Assembly (NCBI GenBank): GCA_022821235.1
Contig: JAJEEA010000419.1
Span: 2,095 to 66,094, forward strand
DNA: 64,000 bases
Origin: Vicinamibacteria bacterium
Lineage (GTDB): Bacteria; Acidobacteriota; Vicinamibacteria; Vicinamibacterales; UBA8438
Direction of reading: 5' to 3'
Positions 11,544-46,283 of this stretch are shown here, in pieces (position 1 is the first letter of the stretch; every line of letters starts with the position of its first letter). A program made the position numbers and the translations under genes. Under the pieces are notes generated by a model, which searched no databases, was not told the DNA's origin, and worked only from the letters and a program-made list of their open reading frames with translations.

Positions 11544-13220
<1,677 letters not shown>

Positions 13221-35954: not shown

Positions 35955-36149
35955 CGGCGCGCTGTGGACGTAGTGGTGTAGGCGATGCCGGCCGGCCGCG
36001 AGAACACCTCGCGATAGAGATCGAGGCGCATCGCCGGCCCGTGGGTCGCGACGGGCACCAGGATGCTGCGCGCAGGGTCGATCCGTAGCGGCGCCGTCGC
36101 CAGCCGTCGCCGTCAGGTTGTCGATGGGCTCCCCATGGCCGTCAGGACT

Positions 36150-36356
36150 TCACGCGCGACGTGGCCCATTTCCTTCTTGCTGCGCTGCAGCAATGCGATT
36201 TCGGATGGTGTCAACATCCGGTGCGCGAGCGAGGTACCGAGCTTCCGATTCAGTAAGGCAGTCGAAGGCGTGACCGAACCGTTCCCGCCACCACTCCTCG
36301 AAGTTCCGGCCGTGCTTCTGTCTGAGCTCATGCAGTTGCTCCCGGGATGGACTCAA
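36150..36356 (-). CDS. hypothetical small ORF (TTG start) overlapping the stop of the PRTase-domain gene
   Basis: ORF only. It may instead be a frameshifted tail, because the adjacent frame reads HRMLTPSEIALLQRSKKEMGHVAREVL. Confidence 0.2.
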   Translation of the reverse strand: MSPSREQLHELRQKHGRNFEEWWRERFGHAFDCLTESEARYLARAPDVDTIRNRIAAAQQEGNGPRRA

Positions 36357-36673
36357 CTTGGCCGAGTACGTCTGGCCGGCAGGACGACGGCGCCGATGAC
36401 CGTGCAGCCCTGCTGCTCCACCCAGCCGCGCAGGTTCGCCAGAGTGCCTCCCTGACCGATGAAGTCGTCAATCGTCACGTAATGGCGTCCCTTGGCCACT
36501 TCCCCCGTGAAGGCGGCCTGACGGGCGAGGCGTGCGTAGCCATCCGCACCCGTATGGGACACCACGTTGGTCTGTACAACTGTATCCTCGCATTCCAGTC
36601 CAAGCCGATCGTTCAGCAGTCTTGCCAGCGCAATCGGAATCGCGTTGACTCCCTCACGCTCGTAGGGACACTG
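36353..36673 (-). pseudogene. 3' part of partner gene B2: phosphoribosyltransferase domain (IS-disrupted)
   Basis: PRPP-binding motif GRHYVTIDDFIGQGGTLANL. The frame is open up to the IS junction at 36673. Confidence 0.65.
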
Positions 36674-37950
36674 CGCTAAATTAACTTGCCATCTTGTGGA
36701 TTCTGTGCTTTACTGACCGCATGCGGCGAGACGTGGAGTTGGAAGCCACCATCGTAGCCAAGTACGTCGCGGTGGCGCCTGTACTGGACGAACGTAGTCG
36801 TCGCCGATGGGCCGCCGCCGAGTCGTTGGCGATCGGCTACGGCGGCGATGCGCTGGTATCGTCCGCCACGGGTCTGGCTCGGGAGACAATTCGCAAGGGA
36901 CGCAGGGAGATTGCCGGCGGCGAGGAGCCGACAGGTCGCGTGCGGCGCGCCGGAGCGGGTCGCCCCCGCATTCAGGAGGGTCAACCCGGCATTCTGACTG
37001 CTCTTGAGGCGTTGGTGGACCCGTTGACGCGCGGGGACCCGACCTCGCCGTTGCGCTGGACGTGCAAGAGTCGCGCGAAGCTCGCGGCGGCGTTGACCGA
37101 GCAGGGGTGGCACGTCAGTTCGACCACGGTGGGCCGTCTGCTTAACCGCTTGGGCTACAGGCTGCAATCGGTTCGCAAGCGGCAGGAAGGTACCACGCAC
37201 CCGGACCGCAACGCCCAGTTCGAGCACATCAACGCGACGGCGGCCGCGCATCTGACGGCCGGGCAACCGGTGATCTCGGTCGACACGAAGAAGAAGGAAC
37301 TGGTGGGGAATTTCACGAATGCGGGCCGGGAATGGCAGCCGAAAGGGAGGCCGTCGGCGGTGCGCGTGCATGATTTCCCGAGCGACGCGGAGGGCAAGGC
37401 GATTCCGTACGGCGTTTACGACATGGCCCGCAATGAAGCGTGGGTGAGCGTTGGGCGAGACCACGACACCCCGGCCTTTGCCGTGGCCTCGATTCGGCAC
37501 TGGTGGCAGCGCATGGGCGAAAGGGCCTATCCGGACGCCAGGACCTTGTACATCACCGCCGATGCGGGTGGGAGCAACGGGTATCGGTGTCACGCGTGGA
37601 AGCACGAGCTTCAGCGCTTGGCCGATGAGATTGGCCTGACGATCCAAGTGAGCCACTTTCCCCCCGGCACGAGCAAATGGAACAAGATCGAGCACCGACT
37701 GTTCTGCCACATCACGGCGAATTGGCGTGGGACTCCGCTGACGACTTACGAAACCATTGTCGACCGCATCGGCAACACGCGAACGGCGGCGGGGCTTCGC
37801 GTGCAAGCGGAGCTCGACGCTGGCGAGTATCCTACCGGGGTGAAGGTGAGCAAGGCGCAGTTGGCCGCAATGATGTTGGTGCGTGATGAATTCCACGGGG
37901 ACTGGAATTACAAATTCACTCCCCGATGAAGTTGGCAACTTTATATCGAT
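36674..37950 (+). mobile_element. ISAzo13-family insertion sequence (1277 bp) with 5-bp target duplication CACTG
   Basis: CACTG at 36669-36673 and again at 37951-37955. Imperfect terminal inverted repeats around a TTGCCA core. A single transposase ORF. Confidence 0.75.
36721..37929 (+). CDS. ISAzo13-family DDE transposase
   Basis: Blocks VISVDTKKKELVGNF, AIPYGVYD, ITADAGGSNGYR and HFPPGTSKWNKIEHRLF are characteristic of the Rhodopirellula/ISAzo13 transposase family. Confidence 0.9.
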   Translation: MRRDVELEATIVAKYVAVAPVLDERSRRRWAAAESLAIGYGGDALVSSATGLARETIRKGRREIAGGEEPTGRVRRAGAGRPRIQEGQPGILTALEALVDPLTRGDPTSPLRWTCKSRAKLAAALTEQGWHVSSTTVGRLLNRLGYRLQSVRKRQEGTTHPDRNAQFEHINATAAAHLTAGQPVISVDTKKKELVGNFTNAGREWQPKGRPSAVRVHDFPSDAEGKAIPYGVYDMARNEAWVSVGRDHDTPAFAVASIRHWWQRMGERAYPDARTLYITADAGGSNGYRCHAWKHELQRLADEIGLTIQVSHFPPGTSKWNKIEHRLFCHITANWRGTPLTTYETIVDRIGNTRTAAGLRVQAELDAGEYPTGVKVSKAQLAAMMLVRDEFHGDWNYKFTPR

Positions 37951-38427
37951 CACTGTCCATAGTCAGCAACCGTGCGGCCCAGCCGGACTGACGGGCCGCG
38001 CGAGGCCCACCACCGCGCGCTCGACAGCCGGTCGATACGGGCGACCCGCGAGTCGGCGGCATATGCCTGCTTTACGGACTCCGTCGCGATCACGCCGCCG
38101 TCCAACCGCCGCCGATCGTCTGTAGCGAGGGCTTCCGCACACCAGGCGCAGTCGTCCGCGGGCCGGACGGGCCGTGCCGGCTCGCAGGGCAACAGCCGCT
38201 CCTGCGTCGCCATCTTCTTGAGCAATTTCCTGCCCCCGCCGATGCCATGGCCGCGCGTCGCCACGGAAGAGACCGCTCCAGGCGCCGTCCCGGAGGTCAC
38301 GCACCAGCCCCTCCGTCAGCATCGCTTCACGGATGGTCTCCAGGCGGGCGGCGCACTCACCCTCGGTCGGGTACGAGGTGACGTCGAACACGTCCGGTGT
38401 GATCGCGTAGTCGGCCAGAAGCGCCAT
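37951..38427 (-). pseudogene. 5' part of partner gene B2 (N-domain shared with B1); frameshift at C5 run 38233-38237, then cut by the IS
   Basis: MALLADYAITPDVFDV... starts with a TGATG overlap on the A2 stop. It aligns with the B1 N-terminus (YAIEPDALV; GDRDRRRILRKL vs GDARPWHRRGRKLLKK; PAEQCW vs PADDCAW). Confidence 0.55.
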
Positions 38428-40417
38428 CAGAAGATCTCCCGCAGGTCTTCCTCGAAGAAGCCGCCCGGCCACGCCTTCACCAGCTCGCCCCTCTCGTTGA
38501 GCGGCATCTCTCGAATCAGCGTCTCGGCCCCGTCCGGCTCCACGAACAGCACGTTGACGTCCTCGTGGCGGACCTCGGGGGCGCCGTCCGGCAACGTTCC
38601 CCCGCTGGTCTCCCGCATGCGGCGCATGATGCGCAGGAACAGATGCTCGCTGTGAGTCTCGATCAGGAACACGTTGCCCTCAGCGGCTCCCGTCGCGAAG
38701 AGATCCCCGAGCTCGACCTGCAACCGCGGATGGACGTGCAGCTCCGGCTGCTCGATGGCCGTGATCTCCGGGCGATCCGGATCGAGCGCAGCCACCACCA
38801 CCGGCAGCAGTTGCGAGATCCCGACACCGATGTCGGACGTTCGCACCGGCAGGTCGGACCTGGTGGCCACGAGCTGGATCTCCCGGTGAATCGGCGCGTC
38901 GGCAATGTGCTCGAACCGGGCCCGGACCTTGTCGGGCGCCTCCCTCATGATGTCGTCCGGTGATTCCCCGCCCGACATGCCCGCCAACGCGGCGAAGAAC
39001 GGCGCTCCCCACTCCTCGCCTTCCACGCTCTTGTTCAATATTCCGACCAACGGCGTGGCCGCGGGAAGATGAACAGCTCTCCGCACCTGCAGCGTGTAGC
39101 CCGTGTCCAGCCGATCCTCTCGCGACAGCCAGTCGCTCAGTCTACGAATCACCGTCGCGCTCATGGCCCCGGCGTCGAGTTGCGGCGAGTCGATCAGCTT
39201 TCGCGTATCCTGATCCACGTTGACGCGCGCATGACCGTTCAGGAGATCCCAGGCTGCAGATCCGTCGGCCCAACGTCGACGGTCGGATCGTGCTCGTTCA
39301 CCGCCGGCGGCCGGATGCAGGTTGCGCAGGGGCCCGACATATCTGTACTGGGCCAGCCCATCACGCAAGAGGCCGCCGATCCCGACCACCAGCGTTGACA
39401 CGCCGTGCCAGAGTTCGTGATAGTCGTCATCGAAACCCTCTTCCAGCTCCATATCGAGATGGTGGCCAAAGGACGGCAGGGCACCACACGAACGGCCTTG
39501 GCGGACCGCCATGCGATGGTGCGCCGGCCCGAACGACTGCGGTTCGGGCGCCTCCCGTACTTGTCCGACCTCCGGCAGAGCCGCGGTCTCCAACGCCTGA
39601 CGCGCGGCCCGGAGCTTCTCCAGTTTCGCTTCGAGCGCCGCCAGGGTTCCCTCCCGAAGAACGTGGTCGAGCATTGGATGCGACAGGTTGGCCAGCAGGT
39701 CCGCCTTGTCATCGCCGGCCGATGCCGCAATGTGACCGACGATCTCTCCGTCGACGCCGACCTCGTAGTCGCTCAGAACCGGCCCGTTACGCTCTGTCGA
39801 CCACCGAACGGTCAGCCCCACCCATCCGGTCTCGATGCGACCGGACCGACTTCCCACGGGTACGGCGCGATGCGCATCGCTCCCGCGAGCTCCGGCAACG
39901 CTCGATTTCGCAGGTTCAGCTCGAAGCGGAGCCGCACCGATCGGGCCAAGTCGTGCCCGTGGACGAATTGGCGGAACCCGCCCAGGTCGATGTGATCGCC
40001 GCCGAGACGGGTCTCGTGTGCATCGACGTTGCGCTGGCTCAGAATCTCGTGCGCGTAGCAGAGCGCGTGCAGCACCGTGCTCTTGCCGGCGCTGTTGCGG
40101 CCGAACAACAGGGTGATGGGCCGGAGCTCGATGCGGACCGGCCGACCGATCCCCTTGAAGTTCTCGATCTCGACGGCCCTGATCACCGGCGACTTCCGTT
40201 CCGGCGCCGTGTCCGCCGGTTCCCTTTCGTCCGCCGAGGACCGCCCTGCCTGGATGGACCGCGACGGCAATGCACCGGCCGAAGCCCTCTCCTCGGGCAC
40301 GTCCGACCCGGCGAGTCGTGGGGTCTGCATATCACCCATCGGTCCGTCGCCCATGGGAACCGCAGTGTCGTCACCGCAATCGAGCTCACGCAGCATAGTG
40401 CCGTCCACTCCTCGCAA
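38427..40417 (-). CDS. ABC-type (AAA_15/AAA_21-like) ATPase A2, paralogue of A1; apparent frameshift near 39845-39880
   Basis: VEIENFKGIGRPVRIELRPITLLFGRNSAGKST (Walker A), IEQPELHVHP (Walker B), ETHSEHL (H-loop), C-terminal WPGGFF. Split over ORFs 39812..40417 and 38427..39857. Confidence 0.75.
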
Positions 40418-40542
40418 ATCCGCTCCCGATGTTCACCGCCGCACCCTCGTACCGCGCCTTCCAGCGCGGCCGGTGCTGACCGATGAGCGTTCAAATCCGT
40501 TCGCGCGTTCGCGAAGGCGACAAGACGCGGAATGCCTGCCTG

Positions 40543-41559
40543 TCAAGACCTTCCGGCAGGTCGACCGCGACGATTCTCAGCCGATCGCCGACGACTGGTC
40601 GACTTGTCTGCGGTCACCGTGAATTCACCGTCCTTGTCGAAGAACGGACTGTCGTCGCCAAACCCCTCCCGAACGCGTTTCCATTCCTGATCGTCGAGTA
40701 GCCCGACCGGCTGCACCTTGCCGGGCTCCAGGTCAAGCCCCTTGTCCAGTCGGTAGCCGCCGCGATCGGTCAAGATGTACCGTGCATGGAAATCATCCGG
40801 GGCATCGCTTCGAATGCGCCAGCGGCAGATGCGCACCGACCCGACCCCCGCCTTCAGCATGCCAGGAACATGCGACCTGCACCGCCCTTCGAACTCCTCG
40901 CTGCTCGGCCCGCCTTGCACGGACGGGGATGCCCTCCGTGCCAACGTGTGGATCTCCGCCCGGAGATTACCGTGTACCGCTTGCGCCGCCAGCGCCAGAC
41001 ACGCTCGCACAACGGGACGCCATCGGCTGACGGAGGGATCAAAATGCGGATCGATCAGCAGCAATTGGCGGCTGTTGCGCACGAGGGTACCGACGTGCGC
41101 CGCCAGCGCAGCCGATTCCCGCAGTACCGGAACCTCGCGCGGAACGGCCAGTTTCTCGTGCGATTCGTCGACGTCCTCCTCACGAACCACGTCCGGATGA
41201 TCCTCCGGATTCCGCGTCGCGAGGAGGGCGTGGAACTCCCGGGCTGCAGCCTGTCGCGCAACGGCGTTCCGAATCCAACACTGTTCCGCGGGCGTGATCG
41301 CACCGTCATAGTCGTCTGACCCGCCCAGCCGGATCATCTTGACGTTGGACTGGTCCAGCTTTCGCAGGATCCGCCGTCGATCACGGTCGCCGAGATCGGT
41401 ATTCTCTCGGCAAGCGGCGCGAACCAGTGCCTTCCAGCGCTTTCGGGTCGGATACGCGGCAATCGCCCGGCCATGCTGGAACCCCATCAGATCGAGAATG
41501 TGCCGGCACTTGTCCCACGTGACGAGCGCATCGGGCTCGATTGCGTACGGATAGAGCAT
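40543..41559 (-). CDS. partner protein B1: shared N-domain + C-terminal PLD/MIT_C-like HxR(x)4D..GLD motif
   Basis: ATG overlaps the A1 stop (TGATG). C-terminus has LLLIDPHFDP ... FHARYILTDRGGYRLDKGLD. No other family is recognised. Confidence 0.65.
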   Translation of the reverse strand: MLYPYAIEPDALVTWDKCRHILDLMGFQHGRAIAAYPTRKRWKALVRAACRENTDLGDRDRRRILRKLDQSNVKMIRLGGSDDYDGAITPAEQCWIRNAVARQAAAREFHALLATRNPEDHPDVVREEDVDESHEKLAVPREVPVLRESAALAAHVGTLVRNSRQLLLIDPHFDPSVSRWRPVVRACLALAAQAVHGNLRAEIHTLARRASPSVQGGPSSEEFEGRCRSHVPGMLKAGVGSVRICRWRIRSDAPDDFHARYILTDRGGYRLDKGLDLEPGKVQPVGLLDDQEWKRVREGFGDDSPFFDKDGEFTVTADKSTSRRRSAENRRGRPAGRS

Positions 41560-43436
41560 CAGAAGAGCTCGTCGTCCCGTTCGTCGAAGAAGCCCTGCGG
41601 CCAGTGGTCGACGAACTCGCCGGTCTCGTCGATCCGAAGCCGCGTCGCCCTGACCTCGCCGTCGACCTGCTCCACGTAGACCACGGAGACCTGGTCCGGC
41701 TTCAGCGCAGGCTTTCCCTCGGGCAGCTCGCCGCTGGCCGTCTCTTCGATGCGACGCAGGAGGCGCAACATCAGGTGCTCGCTGTGGGTCTCGATCAGGA
41801 ACGCCCTGCCGCCGACCGCCTGTTCGGCGAAGAGATCGCCGAGTTCGACCTGAAGGCGGGGATGAACGTGCAACTCCGGCTGCTCGATGGCGGTGATCTC
41901 CGGTCGGTCCGGATCGAGAGCGGCGACCACCACCGGGAGTAACTGCGAGATGCCCACTCCGATTTCGGACGTTCGCACTTGCAGGTCGGTCCCGCTGGTC
42001 GCAATGAGCTGTACCTCTCTGCGAACTGAGGCGTTGGCGATCCCGTCGGCCAAGGCATTGATCTGGTCCGCTGGCGCCTTCCTCACGATGTCGCCACGAG
42101 ATTCAGTCCCGGACAGGTTTGCCGCCTTCGCCTTGGCCGCCGCCCAATCCTCGCCCAGAACGCTTTCGTTCAGCACATCCACCAACGGGGTAGTCGTAGG
42201 AAGCTCGATGTCGTTGCGCACTCGCAACTCGTAGCCCGTATCCAGCCGATCCTCGCGCGAGAGCCAGTCGCTCACCCGTGGGATGACCATGGCCTGATTG
42301 CGCTTGCGCGGGTTGGGAAAGTCGCGCGCAATTCGGCTCAACGTATCCTGCGCACGGACATTCAGAAGGTCCCAGGCCGCGGAGCCGTCGGCCCAACGCC
42401 CGGGGACGGACCTGTCCCGCTCTACGACCGTGCGCGGATGCAACTCGCGCAGCGGACCGAGATACCTGAACCGGGCCAGTTCGTCGCGCACAAGACTTCC
42501 GATACCGGGGAGCAGCATCGACAGTCGGTGGCGGGAATGCTGATCGAAGTCGCCGAAAGCGTCGTCTCTTGTGACCCAGAGCATCTGCCCCAATGGTGGC
42601 AAGGCGGAAGACGGCGTGGAAAGCACCGCCATGCGACGGAGTTCCCGGCCATACTCCACCGATCCGCGCGCCTCCCGCACGTGTCCGACCTCTTGCGACG
42701 GGATGAAGTTCCCCTGGTCGTCCATCCCGTATTCGAGCAACGGATGCGACAGGTTCGTCAACAGGATCGCCTGCCCGGAGAAGGCCGGTTCGGTGATTCG
42801 CCCCACGAGCTGTCCGTCGACACCGATCTCGTAGCGACTGACAATCGGCTCGTCCCGTTCTCGCTGCCATTCGGCCGTAAGTTCCAGCCACCCTGCCTCT
42901 GCACCGTCGAGGACGTCGCGTTCCTCCAGCAAGGGTATGTCGCCTGTCGGCAACATGACCGGCACGTGGGTACCCCACCCCGCGAGCTCGGGCAGGCTCC
43001 GATCCCGCAGGTCCAACTCGAAGCGAAGTCGCAAGGGACGCGTCGAATCGTGCCCATGGACGAAACGCCGGAACCCGCCGAGGTCGACCTGGTCGCCGCC
43101 GAGCTCGGTGGTGCGTGCGTCGACGTTACGGTGGCTGAGGATCTCGTGTGCGTAGCACAGCGCATGGAGGATCGTGCTCTTGCCGGCGCTGTTGCGGCCG
43201 AACAGCAGGGTGATCGGCCGCAGATCGATCCGCACCGGACGGCCGATGCCCTTGAAGTTCTCGATCTCGATGGCGGTGATCAGCGGGACCTCCTGCTCGG
43301 GTTGTTCAGTGTCGCTCGACTGGTGCGACGTCTCCGACCCGAACGCCGGTTCTCCCTTCAGCCCCGGATCCGGCCCTTGCGGCCGTCCCGGCGCAGACTG
43401 GGAGGCGTTGCGTGGATGCGTCGGTTCGTCTGTCAT
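41559..43436 (-). CDS. ABC-type (AAA_15/AAA_21-like) ATPase A1 with DUF3696-like C-terminus
   Basis: IEIENFKGIGRPVRIDLRPITLLFGRNSAGKST, IEQPELHVHPRLQVELGDLF, IETHSEHLMLRLLRRIEE, and ...DHWPQGFFDERDDELF at the end. Confidence 0.85.
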   Translation of the reverse strand: MTDEPTHPRNASQSAPGRPQGPDPGLKGEPAFGSETSHQSSDTEQPEQEVPLITAIEIENFKGIGRPVRIDLRPITLLFGRNSAGKSTILHALCYAHEILSHRNVDARTTELGGDQVDLGGFRRFVHGHDSTRPLRLRFELDLRDRSLPELAGWGTHVPVMLPTGDIPLLEERDVLDGAEAGWLELTAEWQRERDEPIVSRYEIGVDGQLVGRITEPAFSGQAILLTNLSHPLLEYGMDDQGNFIPSQEVGHVREARGSVEYGRELRRMAVLSTPSSALPPLGQMLWVTRDDAFGDFDQHSRHRLSMLLPGIGSLVRDELARFRYLGPLRELHPRTVVERDRSVPGRWADGSAAWDLLNVRAQDTLSRIARDFPNPRKRNQAMVIPRVSDWLSREDRLDTGYELRVRNDIELPTTTPLVDVLNESVLGEDWAAAKAKAANLSGTESRGDIVRKAPADQINALADGIANASVRREVQLIATSGTDLQVRTSEIGVGISQLLPVVVAALDPDRPEITAIEQPELHVHPRLQVELGDLFAEQAVGGRAFLIETHSEHLMLRLLRRIEETASGELPEGKPALKPDQVSVVYVEQVDGEVRATRLRIDETGEFVDHWPQGFFDERDDELF

Positions 43437-43465
43437 GTTCGTAACCTACCTGCTCCACCTACATA

Positions 43466-43481
43466 AGCAAGGCGCGTGCCA
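43466..43481 (-). promoter_or_regulatory. sigma-54 (-24/-12) promoter TGGCAC-gcgcc-TTGCT
   Basis: The reverse complement of 43466-43481 reads TGGCACGCGCCTTGCT. It lies 25 nt after the RtcR-like stop and about 30 nt before the A1 ATG (43436). AGGTAGG Shine-Dalgarno-like sequence 8 nt before the ATG. Confidence 0.65.
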
Positions 43482-43506
43482 GCACGTCCCGAGCCAACCG
43501 CTTGCA

Positions 43507-45032
43507 TCAACCGCGCCGGTTCTCGATCCGCCGCGTCACGCCGTAGCGATGCATCCAGTTCGTGAGTGTCTGGTAGCTGGGCAGCCCGATCAACTCGGCC
43601 GCTCGCGTCTTGTTGCTGGCTGCCTCGTCGAGCGCGCGCTCCAGGTAGTGACGGGCGAGGTCGGCCATCAGGGCCGGGAGATCGAGGCCGCCGCGGAGTG
43701 GCCGACCCAGCAGATCGGCTGACGCGTCCGTCGCCGTGCGGAGCAGTTCCTCGCCCACATCCCCGGCCTCGATGACGGCGTGCGGGCGTCCACAGCACGA
43801 GCCGGTCCATCGTCGCCTGCAGCTCCCGCACGTTGCCGGGCCACAGGTGCCGCAACAGAAGGTTCCTGGCCTTTGGAGAGAGAATCTTCTGTTCGACGCC
43901 GGGCTGGTCGGCGAACTTTCGGTTAGCGGCCGCCAGGAAGTGATCGATGAGCGGCGTCAGGTCGCCCTGGCGCTCGCGGAGCGGCGGCAGCCGGATGACG
44001 CCGGTCGCCAGCCGGTAGTAGAGGTCCTCCCGGAACCGGCCCGCCGCCACCTCGGCCGCGAGGTCGCGGTTGGTGGCCGCGATCACCCGCACGTCGACTG
44101 CCACCGCGCGGTCGGCGCCGAGGCGCCGCACGGTCTTCTCCTGCAGCGTGCGCAGCAGCTTGACCTGGGCGTCGGGGGGCAGCTCGCCAATCTCGTCGAG
44201 GAACAGGGTTCCGCCGTCGGCCGCTTCGAAGTGGCCGGCGCGGGCGCGGACGGCGCCGGAGAACGCGCCCCGCTCGTGGCCGAAGAGCAGCGATTCGACG
44301 AGGCCCTCGGGCAGCGCGCCGCAGTTGACGTCCTCGAAGCGTCCGCGGGCGCGGCGGCTCTCGGCGTGGATGGCCCGGGCGAACAGCTCCTTGCCCGTGC
44401 CGGACGCGCCCTCGATAAGGACAATGACGTGGTGCGGGGCCACCCGGCGGGCGCGGGCTCTTGCCCGGTCCATCAGCGGACTGCGGCCCACTATTCGGTC
44501 GAACGCGGGAGACGCCGTCGGCAGGCCGGTGGTCAGCCGTTCGATCTTCGCATCGGCATGCCGCAGCAACGCCGGCACGTACTCGGCGGCGATGTCGAAG
44601 GGCACCGAGACCGTGCGCACGCCGGTCTGGGGGTGCGACTGAATCAGCTCCGCGGGATAGCGGGTCTTGGCGAGCAGCACCCAGACCGCCTGCATGGCGG
44701 GCGTGCCGGGGCTGACGTGCACCGCGAGGTCAGCGTCGGCGCCGAACTCGTCGCGCGTGAAGTCGAAGGCCCGAACCACCGCGGCGTGGATGGCGCCGTA
44801 GTCGGTCGGATCGGACAGGACTTCGGTCCGAAGATGGATGGAAGGAGCGCCCGACTCGACCAGCCGGTCGAACGAACGCCCGGTTCTCCGACGCCGGATA
44901 GTTGGAGAGCAGCACCAGCGCATCGAGCCGGCGAGCGGCGACGACGCTGCCGACGGGACCCCGACCCGGCCGCCCCCCCCGCGCGCAGTCGAGGTCGGTC
45001 TGGCCGATCCAGGTCAGGAGCACCGCGGGCAC
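43507..45032 (-). CDS. RtcR-like sigma-54-dependent activator (CARF-type N-domain + AAA+ + Fis HTH); two apparent frameshifts (~44870-44885, ~43775-43790)
   Basis: GTG start then [43 protein letters not shown] resembles E. coli RtcR HITTGTHVAQICWFLLAEARYLPARLIQS (recalled from memory). [25 protein letters not shown]. Tail [21 protein letters not shown]. Confidence 0.75.
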
Positions 45033-45269
45033 CGCGAGATCATAAACTCTCTTGCCTCTGACGCAAGAGTACTCCTATGTCCACAAGTGTTGGACCTGCA
45101 CCGTGGCAGCCGTGTCTTCGCCACCTCGGACAGAATGCAGCGCATCAATCAGGAAACCCGAGACCGACCTCGCGGGGAAACGACCGATCACGGTCGAGCT
45201 CAGGCCGGACACCGGCCCAGGGAGAGGCGTTCAGGAACTCGACCAGCGCGAGGGCTGCGGACGCCCGGC

Positions 45270-46283
45270 CTACCCCTCGGCCGCCATCGGCTCGTCGCGG
45301 CCGACGACCCGGGTCGCGGGGCCCAGGATCAGCGGGTCGGGGCGCGTCACCACCTCGGGGTTCTTGTCGGGGTAGGGGACGTTCGAGAGGAAGTGCAGCA
45401 GGCAGGCGACGCGTGCGCGCTTCTTGTCGTCCGACTTGATGACCGTCCACGGGGCGTCGGCAGTGTCGGTGTAGAAGAACATCGCCTCCTTGGCCTCGGT
45501 GTAGCCGTCCCACTTGTCGAGCGAGGCGAGGTCGACGGGCGAGATCTTCCACTGCTTGAGGGGGTCGTTCTGACGGCTGCCGAAGCGGCGCGCCTGCTCG
45601 TCCTGGGAGACCGAGAACCAGTACTTGAACAGTCGGATGCCGCTGTTGACGAGCATGCGCTCGAGCTCGGGGCACTGGCGCATGAACTCGAGGTACTCCG
45701 AGCCGGTGCAGAAGCCCATCACCCGCTCGACCCCGGCGCGGTTGTACCAGGACCGGTCGAACAGCACGATCTCGCCCGCCGCCGGCAGGTGCTCGATGTA
45801 GCGCTGGAAGTACCACTGCCCGCGCTCACGCTCGGTGGGCTTCTCGAGGGCCACGACGCGGGCGCCTCGGGGGTTCAGGTGCTCCATGAACCGCTTGATG
45901 GTGCCGCCCTTGCCGGCCGCGTCGCGCCCCTCGAACAGGACGACGATGCGGGTGCCCGACTCCTTGACCCAGCGCTGCACCTTGAGCAGCTCGGCCTGCA
46001 GGGCGGCCTTGCGCCGCTCGTAGGCGCCGCGCTTCATGCGGTCCGAGTAGGGATAGACGCCCTCCTTGAAGACGCGCCGGATGACGTCGGGGTCGTGGGG
46101 CGTCGGACCGACGGCGTCCGTCGGAATCGGGCCCGTCGGCGGGTCGTCGACGACGGCCGGTCCGCTCCCGTGCGCGCGGGACTTGCGCGCTCCCGTCTTG
46201 CTCTTCGCTTTCTTCCTCTTCTTCACCGACGCCTTGCCGGCATCGGCGCGCCCCGATGGTCGGGGACCGGTCTCCTCGGTCAT
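45270..46283 (-). CDS. ppk2: polyphosphate kinase 2
   Basis: VVLFEGRDAAGKGGTIKRF Walker A, FDRSWYNRAGVERVMGF, and the lid region typical of PPK2. Confidence 0.9.
   Translation of the reverse strand: MTEETGPRPSGRADAGKASVKKRKKAKSKTGARKSRAHGSGPAVVDDPPTGPIPTDAVGPTPHDPDVIRRVFKEGVYPYSDRMKRGAYERRKAALQAELLKVQRWVKESGTRIVVLFEGRDAAGKGGTIKRFMEHLNPRGARVVALEKPTERERGQWYFQRYIEHLPAAGEIVLFDRSWYNRAGVERVMGFCTGSEYLEFMRQCPELERMLVNSGIRLFKYWFSVSQDEQARRFGSRQNDPLKQWKISPVDLASLDKWDGYTEAKEAMFFYTDTADAPWTVIKSDDKKRARVACLLHFLSNVPYPDKNPEVVTRPDPLILGPATRVVGRDEPMAAEG

Follow-up and report, generated by a model that had tools for sequence, protein, structure and literature searches.

Within the 64,000-nt stretch of Vicinamibacteria DNA analyzed here (contig JAJEEA010000419.1; hereafter the window), the gap between a gene for an RtcR-like enhancer-binding protein and the ATPase gene A1 carries a -24/-12 element. 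We hold with good confidence that this element is a real sigma-54 promoter belonging to a conserved activator-promoter unit, and that the circuit is probably broken in this strain. The unit would have two parts and would occur mainly in Vicinamibacterales: an RtcR-like activator gene and a sigma-54 promoter set right past its stop codon, which together would drive a variable cargo, here A1 and the adjoining gene B1. That a sigma-54 promoter lies between the enhancer-binding protein gene and A1 was first proposed from the letters of the window alone (the sequence-only reading), and conservation among orthologs now supports it.

The promoter core, TGGCAC-GCGCC-TTGCT, occupies 43466..43481 on the minus strand and reads TGGCACGCGCCTTGCT from 43481 to 43466 (the reverse complement of the plus-strand letters). 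The canonical sigma-54 consensus is YTGGCACG-N4-TTGCW, with glnAp2 and nifH as examples, and the window site with its flanks, CTGGCACG-CGCC-TTGCT, agrees with it wherever a base is specified, down to the Y that precedes TGGCAC and the G that follows. The GG of the -24 element falls at 43480..43479 and the GC of the -12 element at 43468..43467, so that the two dinucleotides are exactly 10 nt apart. The promoter itself is a textbook element, identical in kind to canonical sigma-54 promoters as far as its sequence goes, whereas its position right behind the activator's stop codon is unusual. The stop codon in the frame of the activator's helix-turn-helix (HTH) domain ends at 43507 and the A1 ATG lies at 43436, which leaves 70 bp; the motif begins 25 nt past the stop codon, and tatgtaggtggagcaggtaggttacgaac fills the 29 nt between motif and A1 ATG. 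The longest open reading frame through the activator region (44923..43433) crosses this gap, because a frameshift in the activator throws the reading into the wrong frame.

Sigma-54 promoters canonically initiate about 12 nt downstream of the -12 GC. Applied to the window, this spacing puts the predicted start 12 nt beyond the -12 C (43467), at a G near 43455, and gives a leader of 19 nt (43437..43455, minus strand). A purine-rich, Shine-Dalgarno-like AGGTAGG is present at 43451..43445, eight nt before the A1 ATG, in agreement with the short leader and purine-rich ribosome-binding site of the sequence-only reading. Its other descriptive statements, namely the motif sequence, the spacing of GG and GC, the 70-bp gap and a 125-nt gap between B1 and the downstream gene A2, were all confirmed on the sequence. 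Rfam returned zero RNA elements for window positions 36000-46000.

Exact matches to TGGCAC-N5-TTGCW are rare: dinucleotide shuffles predict 0.03 for the 64 kb of the window, which has 1, and any such match appeared in 2 of 100 shuffles. We also scored the window with weight matrices derived from orthologous sites only, the window's own site being left out. Under a 24-mer matrix the site scores 26.3 bits, against 9.8 for the next best of approximately 128,000 positions, and under a core-only matrix 23.7 bits against 9.2. Matrix scoring had been proposed along with the original reading as a check on it, and it sets the motif far above all other positions in the window.

The comparative evidence comes from a set of 70 loci, mostly from Vicinamibacterales MAGs, collected by a scan with an A1 alignment at one genome per species. 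Searching these loci with the window proteins (tblastn) recovered the order activator-A-B in about 35 loci, where a further A-B pair often follows; the activators are 75-94% identical to that of the window, and the A and B proteins are much more divergent (25-91%). Just past the activator stop codon, a site with at least 10 of 11 consensus positions is found at 34 of the 37 loci that match the activator HTH region. About 24 orthologs leave no base between stop and motif, TGA being followed directly by TGGCACG (L008, L011-L017, L019, L021-L023, L025-L029, L031-L035 and L041), and in the window's clade the offset from the stop is 25-27 nt. The 34 unique orthologous sites are invariant at positions 1-4 (TGGC) and 12-15 (TTGC) and vary freely at spacer positions 8, 9 and 11; the sequence-only reading had named a lack of such conservation in orthologous loci as grounds for rejecting it, and it passes this check decisively. 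The 995 kb of related loci, both strands included, contain 30 exact matches. All are on the strand that encodes the genes, 27 of them at the junction behind the activator and three immediately before A genes. Of 35 activator-bearing loci 34 have the motif, and of 31 loci without an activator (mostly from other phyla, with 400 nt upstream of A examined) none has it, an association with a Fisher p of 5e-18. From the motif to the start codon, orthologs have 13-30 nt, and many have only 13-16 nt, which implies near-leaderless cargo mRNAs. In one locus from a MAG labelled proteobacterial (L026:1-9558), the RtcR-like activator, with TGGCAC...TTGCA set right against it, stands at the front of an operon for type I restriction-modification (HsdR/HsdM/HsdS), which is followed by an A-B module.

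These data bear on two readings in which the element would be no promoter. The first, that the motif is a chance consensus match in a GC-rich genome, can draw on the 0.83 one-mismatch matches per window expected by chance, and a one-mismatch search of the window found zero further sites. Against it stand the exact match at an expectation of 0.03, the conserved position at 34 orthologous loci and the Fisher test above. We reject a chance match on its positional conservation, its gene-strand orientation and its association with the activator, and regard its probability as negligible. The second holds that the conserved 16-mer marks a cassette boundary, as a recombination site or as a binding site of the activator HTH. 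With a conserved activator on one side and a cargo that is far more variable and differs between loci on the other, the junction does behave like a recombination boundary. The details nevertheless argue for a promoter and make a boundary site highly improbable: the GG and GC cores are invariant at fixed spacing with a free spacer, which is the pattern of sigma-54 recognition; the motif always faces the gene that follows, at a distance from the start codon compatible with a promoter; the adjoining gene encodes a sigma-54-specific activator; and the motif is without the dyad symmetry expected of an HTH site.

The activator gene (43507..45032, minus strand), a probable pseudogene, has the architecture CARF, sigma-54 AAA+ and Fis-type HTH. 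Its Pfam matches are Sigma54_activat (PF00158, 1.8e-66), RtcR (23.9 bits against a cut-off of 23.1) and HTH_8, and its best PADLOC model is RtcR_PspF2--CARF_AAA_HTH (1.3e-147). For the intact ortholog of locus L071, the best NCBIfam model is RtcR (NF038308) at 350 bits, below the 650-bit equivalog cut-off, and we therefore call the activator RtcR-like and no RtcR equivalog. The loop that contacts sigma-54 reads GAFSGA and is invariant in 27 of 27 aligned orthologs. GAFSGA is a conservative variant of the canonical GAFTGA, and we counted it, as non-canonical, against the sigma-54 reading; in mutagenesis of PspF, a Thr-to-Ser change in GAFTGA was reportedly tolerated.

Ahead of the activator, at 45039..45069 on the minus strand, lie a sigma-70-like -10 element and an overlapping dyad that are probably the activator's own promoter and operator. 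The -10 element, TATGAT, is at 45044..45039, six nt before the activator GTG, and the dyad, CTCTTGC-N7-GCAAGAG, at 45069..45049, overlaps its region; the -10 and the right arm of the dyad are kept in about 25 orthologous loci. In about 25 orthologs a -10-like TTATGAT stands 6-8 nt before the activator start codon (window region 45039..45085), a position that suggests a leaderless activator mRNA. The arms of the dyad differ between clades and are still largely complementary in several loci, and the element is a candidate for an operator in autoregulation or for an enhancer acting from a distance. The next gene upstream of the activator is that for polyphosphate kinase 2 (PPK2; 45262..46283, minus strand), which is also the neighbor in L071 and L072, with DNA homology extending into L007; these shared surroundings indicate that the locus sits in a stable chromosomal context in the window's clade.

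Since the promoter lies at or near the activator stop codon, an enhancer, if there is one, would have to be within the activator's coding region or a long way upstream. No convincing activator binding site emerged when the activator region was scanned for inverted repeats, and perfect dyads inside the activator coding sequence are conserved in position in at most 26% of sequences. The synonymous-site profile of 27 orthologous activator genes has no dip 80-150 nt upstream of the promoter and no clear dip over the last 100 activator codons, only a shallow one in the last 15 or so. The only conserved dyad is the one at the activator's own promoter, 1.55 kb upstream of the sigma-54 site, and further copies of it were not found near that site. 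For sigma-54 itself, an RpoN-box regular expression applied in six frames to the window and all 72 loci (about 1 Mb) had zero matches, and our search of the literature on sigma-54 in Acidobacteria and Vicinamibacterales found no usable statement. We infer the presence of rpoN from the conserved pairing of activator and promoter, and the dependence on sigma-54 is itself an inference.

The sequence-only reading also held that A1 and B1 stay silent until the activator fires, which ignores read-through. There is no terminator-like hairpin between the activator and A1, so transcripts from the activator's own promoter could run on into the cargo; moreover, in most orthologs the promoter adjoins the stop codon so closely that neither a terminator nor an intergenic enhancer would fit. 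A1 and B1 might accordingly be expressed mainly by read-through from the activator's sigma-70-type promoter, with the sigma-54 site acting as a booster or as a closed-complex roadblock. The missing hairpin, the roughly 24 orthologs with stop codon and -24 element back to back, where a terminator has no space, and the conserved -10 ahead of the activator all speak for this possibility, which we place on the unlikely side. That a full-strength -24/-12 element is so strictly conserved argues for activated initiation as the selected function, as do the separate second sigma-54 sites that precede second modules in some clades. One clade of seven loci has its own sigma-54-like site directly before the second A gene (L008:9655, L012:9772, L013:9683, L014:9694, L022:9718, L023:8989 and L025:9703), and by these sites each of its ATPase-effector modules appears to have its own activator-dependent promoter.

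The window's copy of the activator gene is damaged. It carries two private +1 insertions, of a T (about 44872) and of a C (about 43786), neither of which is present in the loci L071, L007 and L001. From the native GTG at 45032, translation meets a stop at 44730 after 100 codons, and the 496-aa reading frame that opens at the ATG at 44923 is without the first part of the CARF domain and without the whole HTH. Contrary to the original assumption of an activator able to fire, the window's activator as encoded is, by its reading frames, unable to do so. Outside the indels it retains about 94% amino acid identity to L007, with zero stops in the corrected frames.

The second module is damaged as well. 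A2 (38427..40417, minus strand) is, like A1, an NsnB-type ABC ATPase gene with a DUF3696 C-terminal helix, and its halves lie in different frames owing to a 1-bp deletion (one G lost) at about 39843 relative to L007, whose ortholog is a single in-frame ORF of 663 aa. Of the second B gene only a remnant is left (37959..38427, minus strand; tblastn with the second B protein of L007), with a frameshift near 38228 and an end after about residue 156 of the 318 in the L007 homolog; DNA homology with L007 stops at about 37951-37967. Next to it lies a DDE transposase gene of the ISAzo13 family (36694..37929, plus strand; PF07592, 2.4e-140), and the element truncates the second B gene, itself already frameshifted. 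The ORF that had been taken for a gene, B2, and for the partner of A2 (37953..36676, minus strand) we reject as a shadow ORF of this transposase: the codon-position GC pattern fits the plus strand and not the minus strand, and the translation is arginine-rich noise. For annotation, this is a warning on two counts, in that the activator here is a pseudogene and B2 the shadow of an IS transposase. In L035, an A gene is matched in two parts, and between these, on the other strand, tblastn places a match to the B2 shadow ORF (11590..12864), a pattern that would fit an interruption of the gene by a similar IS. As to the idea that A2 and B2 share the A1 promoter, the 125-nt gap between B1 and A2 (40542..40418) reaches a best matrix score of 2.3 bits and hence the window has no second sigma-54 promoter; A2 is frameshifted and B2 an IS shadow. 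Whether the second A gene has its own site differs by clade, several relatives having one and the window's clade having none.

Could the lesions be artifacts of assembly, so that the whole circuit is intact, the activator a normal protein of 507 aa, and A1 and B1 inducible as first proposed? Every single-base lesion falls within a short homopolymer (T to TT, CC to CCC, GGG to GG), a context typical of errors, many of the related MAGs are long-read assemblies, and the near-identity of the activator to L007 with no stops in corrected frames would fit such errors. Over 12.6 kb the window has a 100% identical counterpart in L072, a scaffold deposited separately (sample ERZ23491296), in which both activator insertions recur, although the two assemblies may go back to one set of reads. 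The lesions are concentrated in a single locus that also has a gene-truncating IS insertion, which cannot be a base-calling error, and neighboring genes called on L072 appear full-length. Together, the identity of L072 and the IS insertion make real decay more likely than assembly error; that the single-base lesions are assembly errors is unlikely without being far-fetched, and we give the same limited credence to an intact circuit. On the sequence evidence the locus is probably decaying in this strain, with the activator, A2 and the second B gene as pseudogenes. Decay also seems visible at three other loci. In L004 (5859-6627), a B gene fragment stands directly behind the activator, the promoter, A and the N-terminus of B being deleted; in L013 (2848-6664), about 2.7 kb splits the activator matches; and in L029 (4699-5559), the activator match begins only at query residue 95 and the first A gene is partly matched.

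The first module remains intact. A1 (41559..43436, minus strand) encodes a 625-aa NsnB-like ABC ATPase with Pfam matches to AAA_15/AAA_21 and to the C-terminal DUF3696 helix, and it has 1349 homologs. Its closest PADLOC models are NsnB of Menshen (8.2e-43) and the candidate PDC-M55A (1e-42), with the candidate HEC-03B also among them. A central insert of A1 (residues ~120-320; window 42480..43080, minus strand) is hypervariable between very close relatives: its identity to L007 and L001 is 37-60%, where the two ends of the protein reach 85-100% and flanking genes exceed 90%. Such a pattern suggests a sensor-like domain under diversifying selection, or one whose segments are exchanged. B1 (40543..41559, minus strand) encodes a 338-aa protein for which sequence searches (Pfam, NCBIfam, PADLOC, PDB) were empty or at noise level. 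Its AlphaFold2 model (pLDDT 91.6) matches PLD, the SauUSI nuclease domain and PLD3 in Foldseek with probability 1.0, and the residues of a conserved motif, H258-x-R-x4-D, are invariant, so we annotate B1 as a predicted nuclease-like effector of the PLD superfamily. With an NsnB-like A1 and a PLD-fold B1, the cargo looks like an ATPase-plus-nuclease defense pair, and a role in defense is what the domain content and the structural model would predict.

In an intact version of the unit, sigma-54 holoenzyme would wait at the promoter as a closed complex, and ATP hydrolysis would open the promoter and allow transcription from about 43455 with the 19-nt leader. Given the two private frameshifts of the activator and the lesions of the second module, A1 and B1 in this strain would be silent unless transcription from the activator's sigma-70-type promoter runs on into them. 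A broader interpretation, to which we lean slightly less than halfway, is that of a portable platform, in which the RtcR-like CARF activator and the stop-fused sigma-54 promoter license hypervariable and potentially toxic defense cassettes only upon an RNA-damage signal, the putative ligand. Such a platform would be found in Vicinamibacterales and in occasional MAGs labelled as other phyla, would make near-leaderless transcripts, and would have its enhancer in coding sequence or none; the window would be an instance decaying after loss of its activator. Were this true, its cassettes would be modules of NsnB-like ATPase and PLD-fold nuclease and sometimes type I restriction-modification.

The closest characterized regulator is RtcR, which activates the sigma-54-dependent rtcBA promoter in E. 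coli and Salmonella from a gene divergent from its target. RtcR is the activator's best family in both NCBIfam and PADLOC, the CARF, AAA+ and HTH architecture is the same, and the target is likewise a -24/-12 promoter. In contrast to rtcR, the activator gene here is co-directional with its target and directly upstream of it, the loop contacting sigma-54 reads GAFSGA, little or no sequence separates the activator stop codon from the promoter, and the cargo is an ABC ATPase and a PLD-like protein in place of RtcB and RtcA. Among the genes called in L071 and L072, no member of the RtcB or RtcA Pfam families occurs within 10 kb upstream of A1 or downstream of A1 to the contig end (about 2.2 kb in L071 and 0.75 kb in L072).

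On the side of the cargo, the arrangement of an A-type ATPase gene followed by a highly variable predicted nuclease recalls Menshen NsnB-NsnC, Septu PtuAB, PARIS AriAB and Gabija; the first three ATPase-effector arrangements are summarized in PMC12065111. A1 shares with Menshen the NsnB-type ATPase and its DUF3696 tail, a type of C-terminal helix that in Menshen models clamps the effector (PMC12065111). Unlike Menshen, the locus has no NsnA (ParB/DUF262) gene, the activator being the gene directly upstream of A1, and where NsnC combines an inPIN domain with a toxin, B1 has a predicted PLD fold and no PADLOC model match.

Nothing at the locus is unexpected in kind, and an RtcR-like activator heading defense genes is already described in outline. 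The excerpted text of Bell et al. (eLife 2024, PMC11090510) describes co-directional defense 'superoperons' headed by RtcR homologs at CoCoNuT loci and proposes their induction by RNA fragments with cyclic-phosphate ends. As in those superoperons, in the form described there, the loci studied here have an RtcR-like CARF activator at the 5' end of co-directional defense genes, and the type I restriction-modification genes between activator and A-B module in L026 repeat an arrangement given in the same excerpts. Our loci differ in having no CoCoNuT, McrBC or HEPN components, in their cargo of NsnB-like ATPase and PLD-fold protein, and in hosts that are mainly Vicinamibacterales. The same excerpts contain no description of a promoter sequence. 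The value of the present analysis lies in a precisely located and comparatively validated control point for defense operons headed by RtcR homologs, one that makes RNA-damage-induced ATPase-nuclease immunity in Acidobacteriota testable: where that text proposes such control from gene order, here the promoter is located and found to be conserved.
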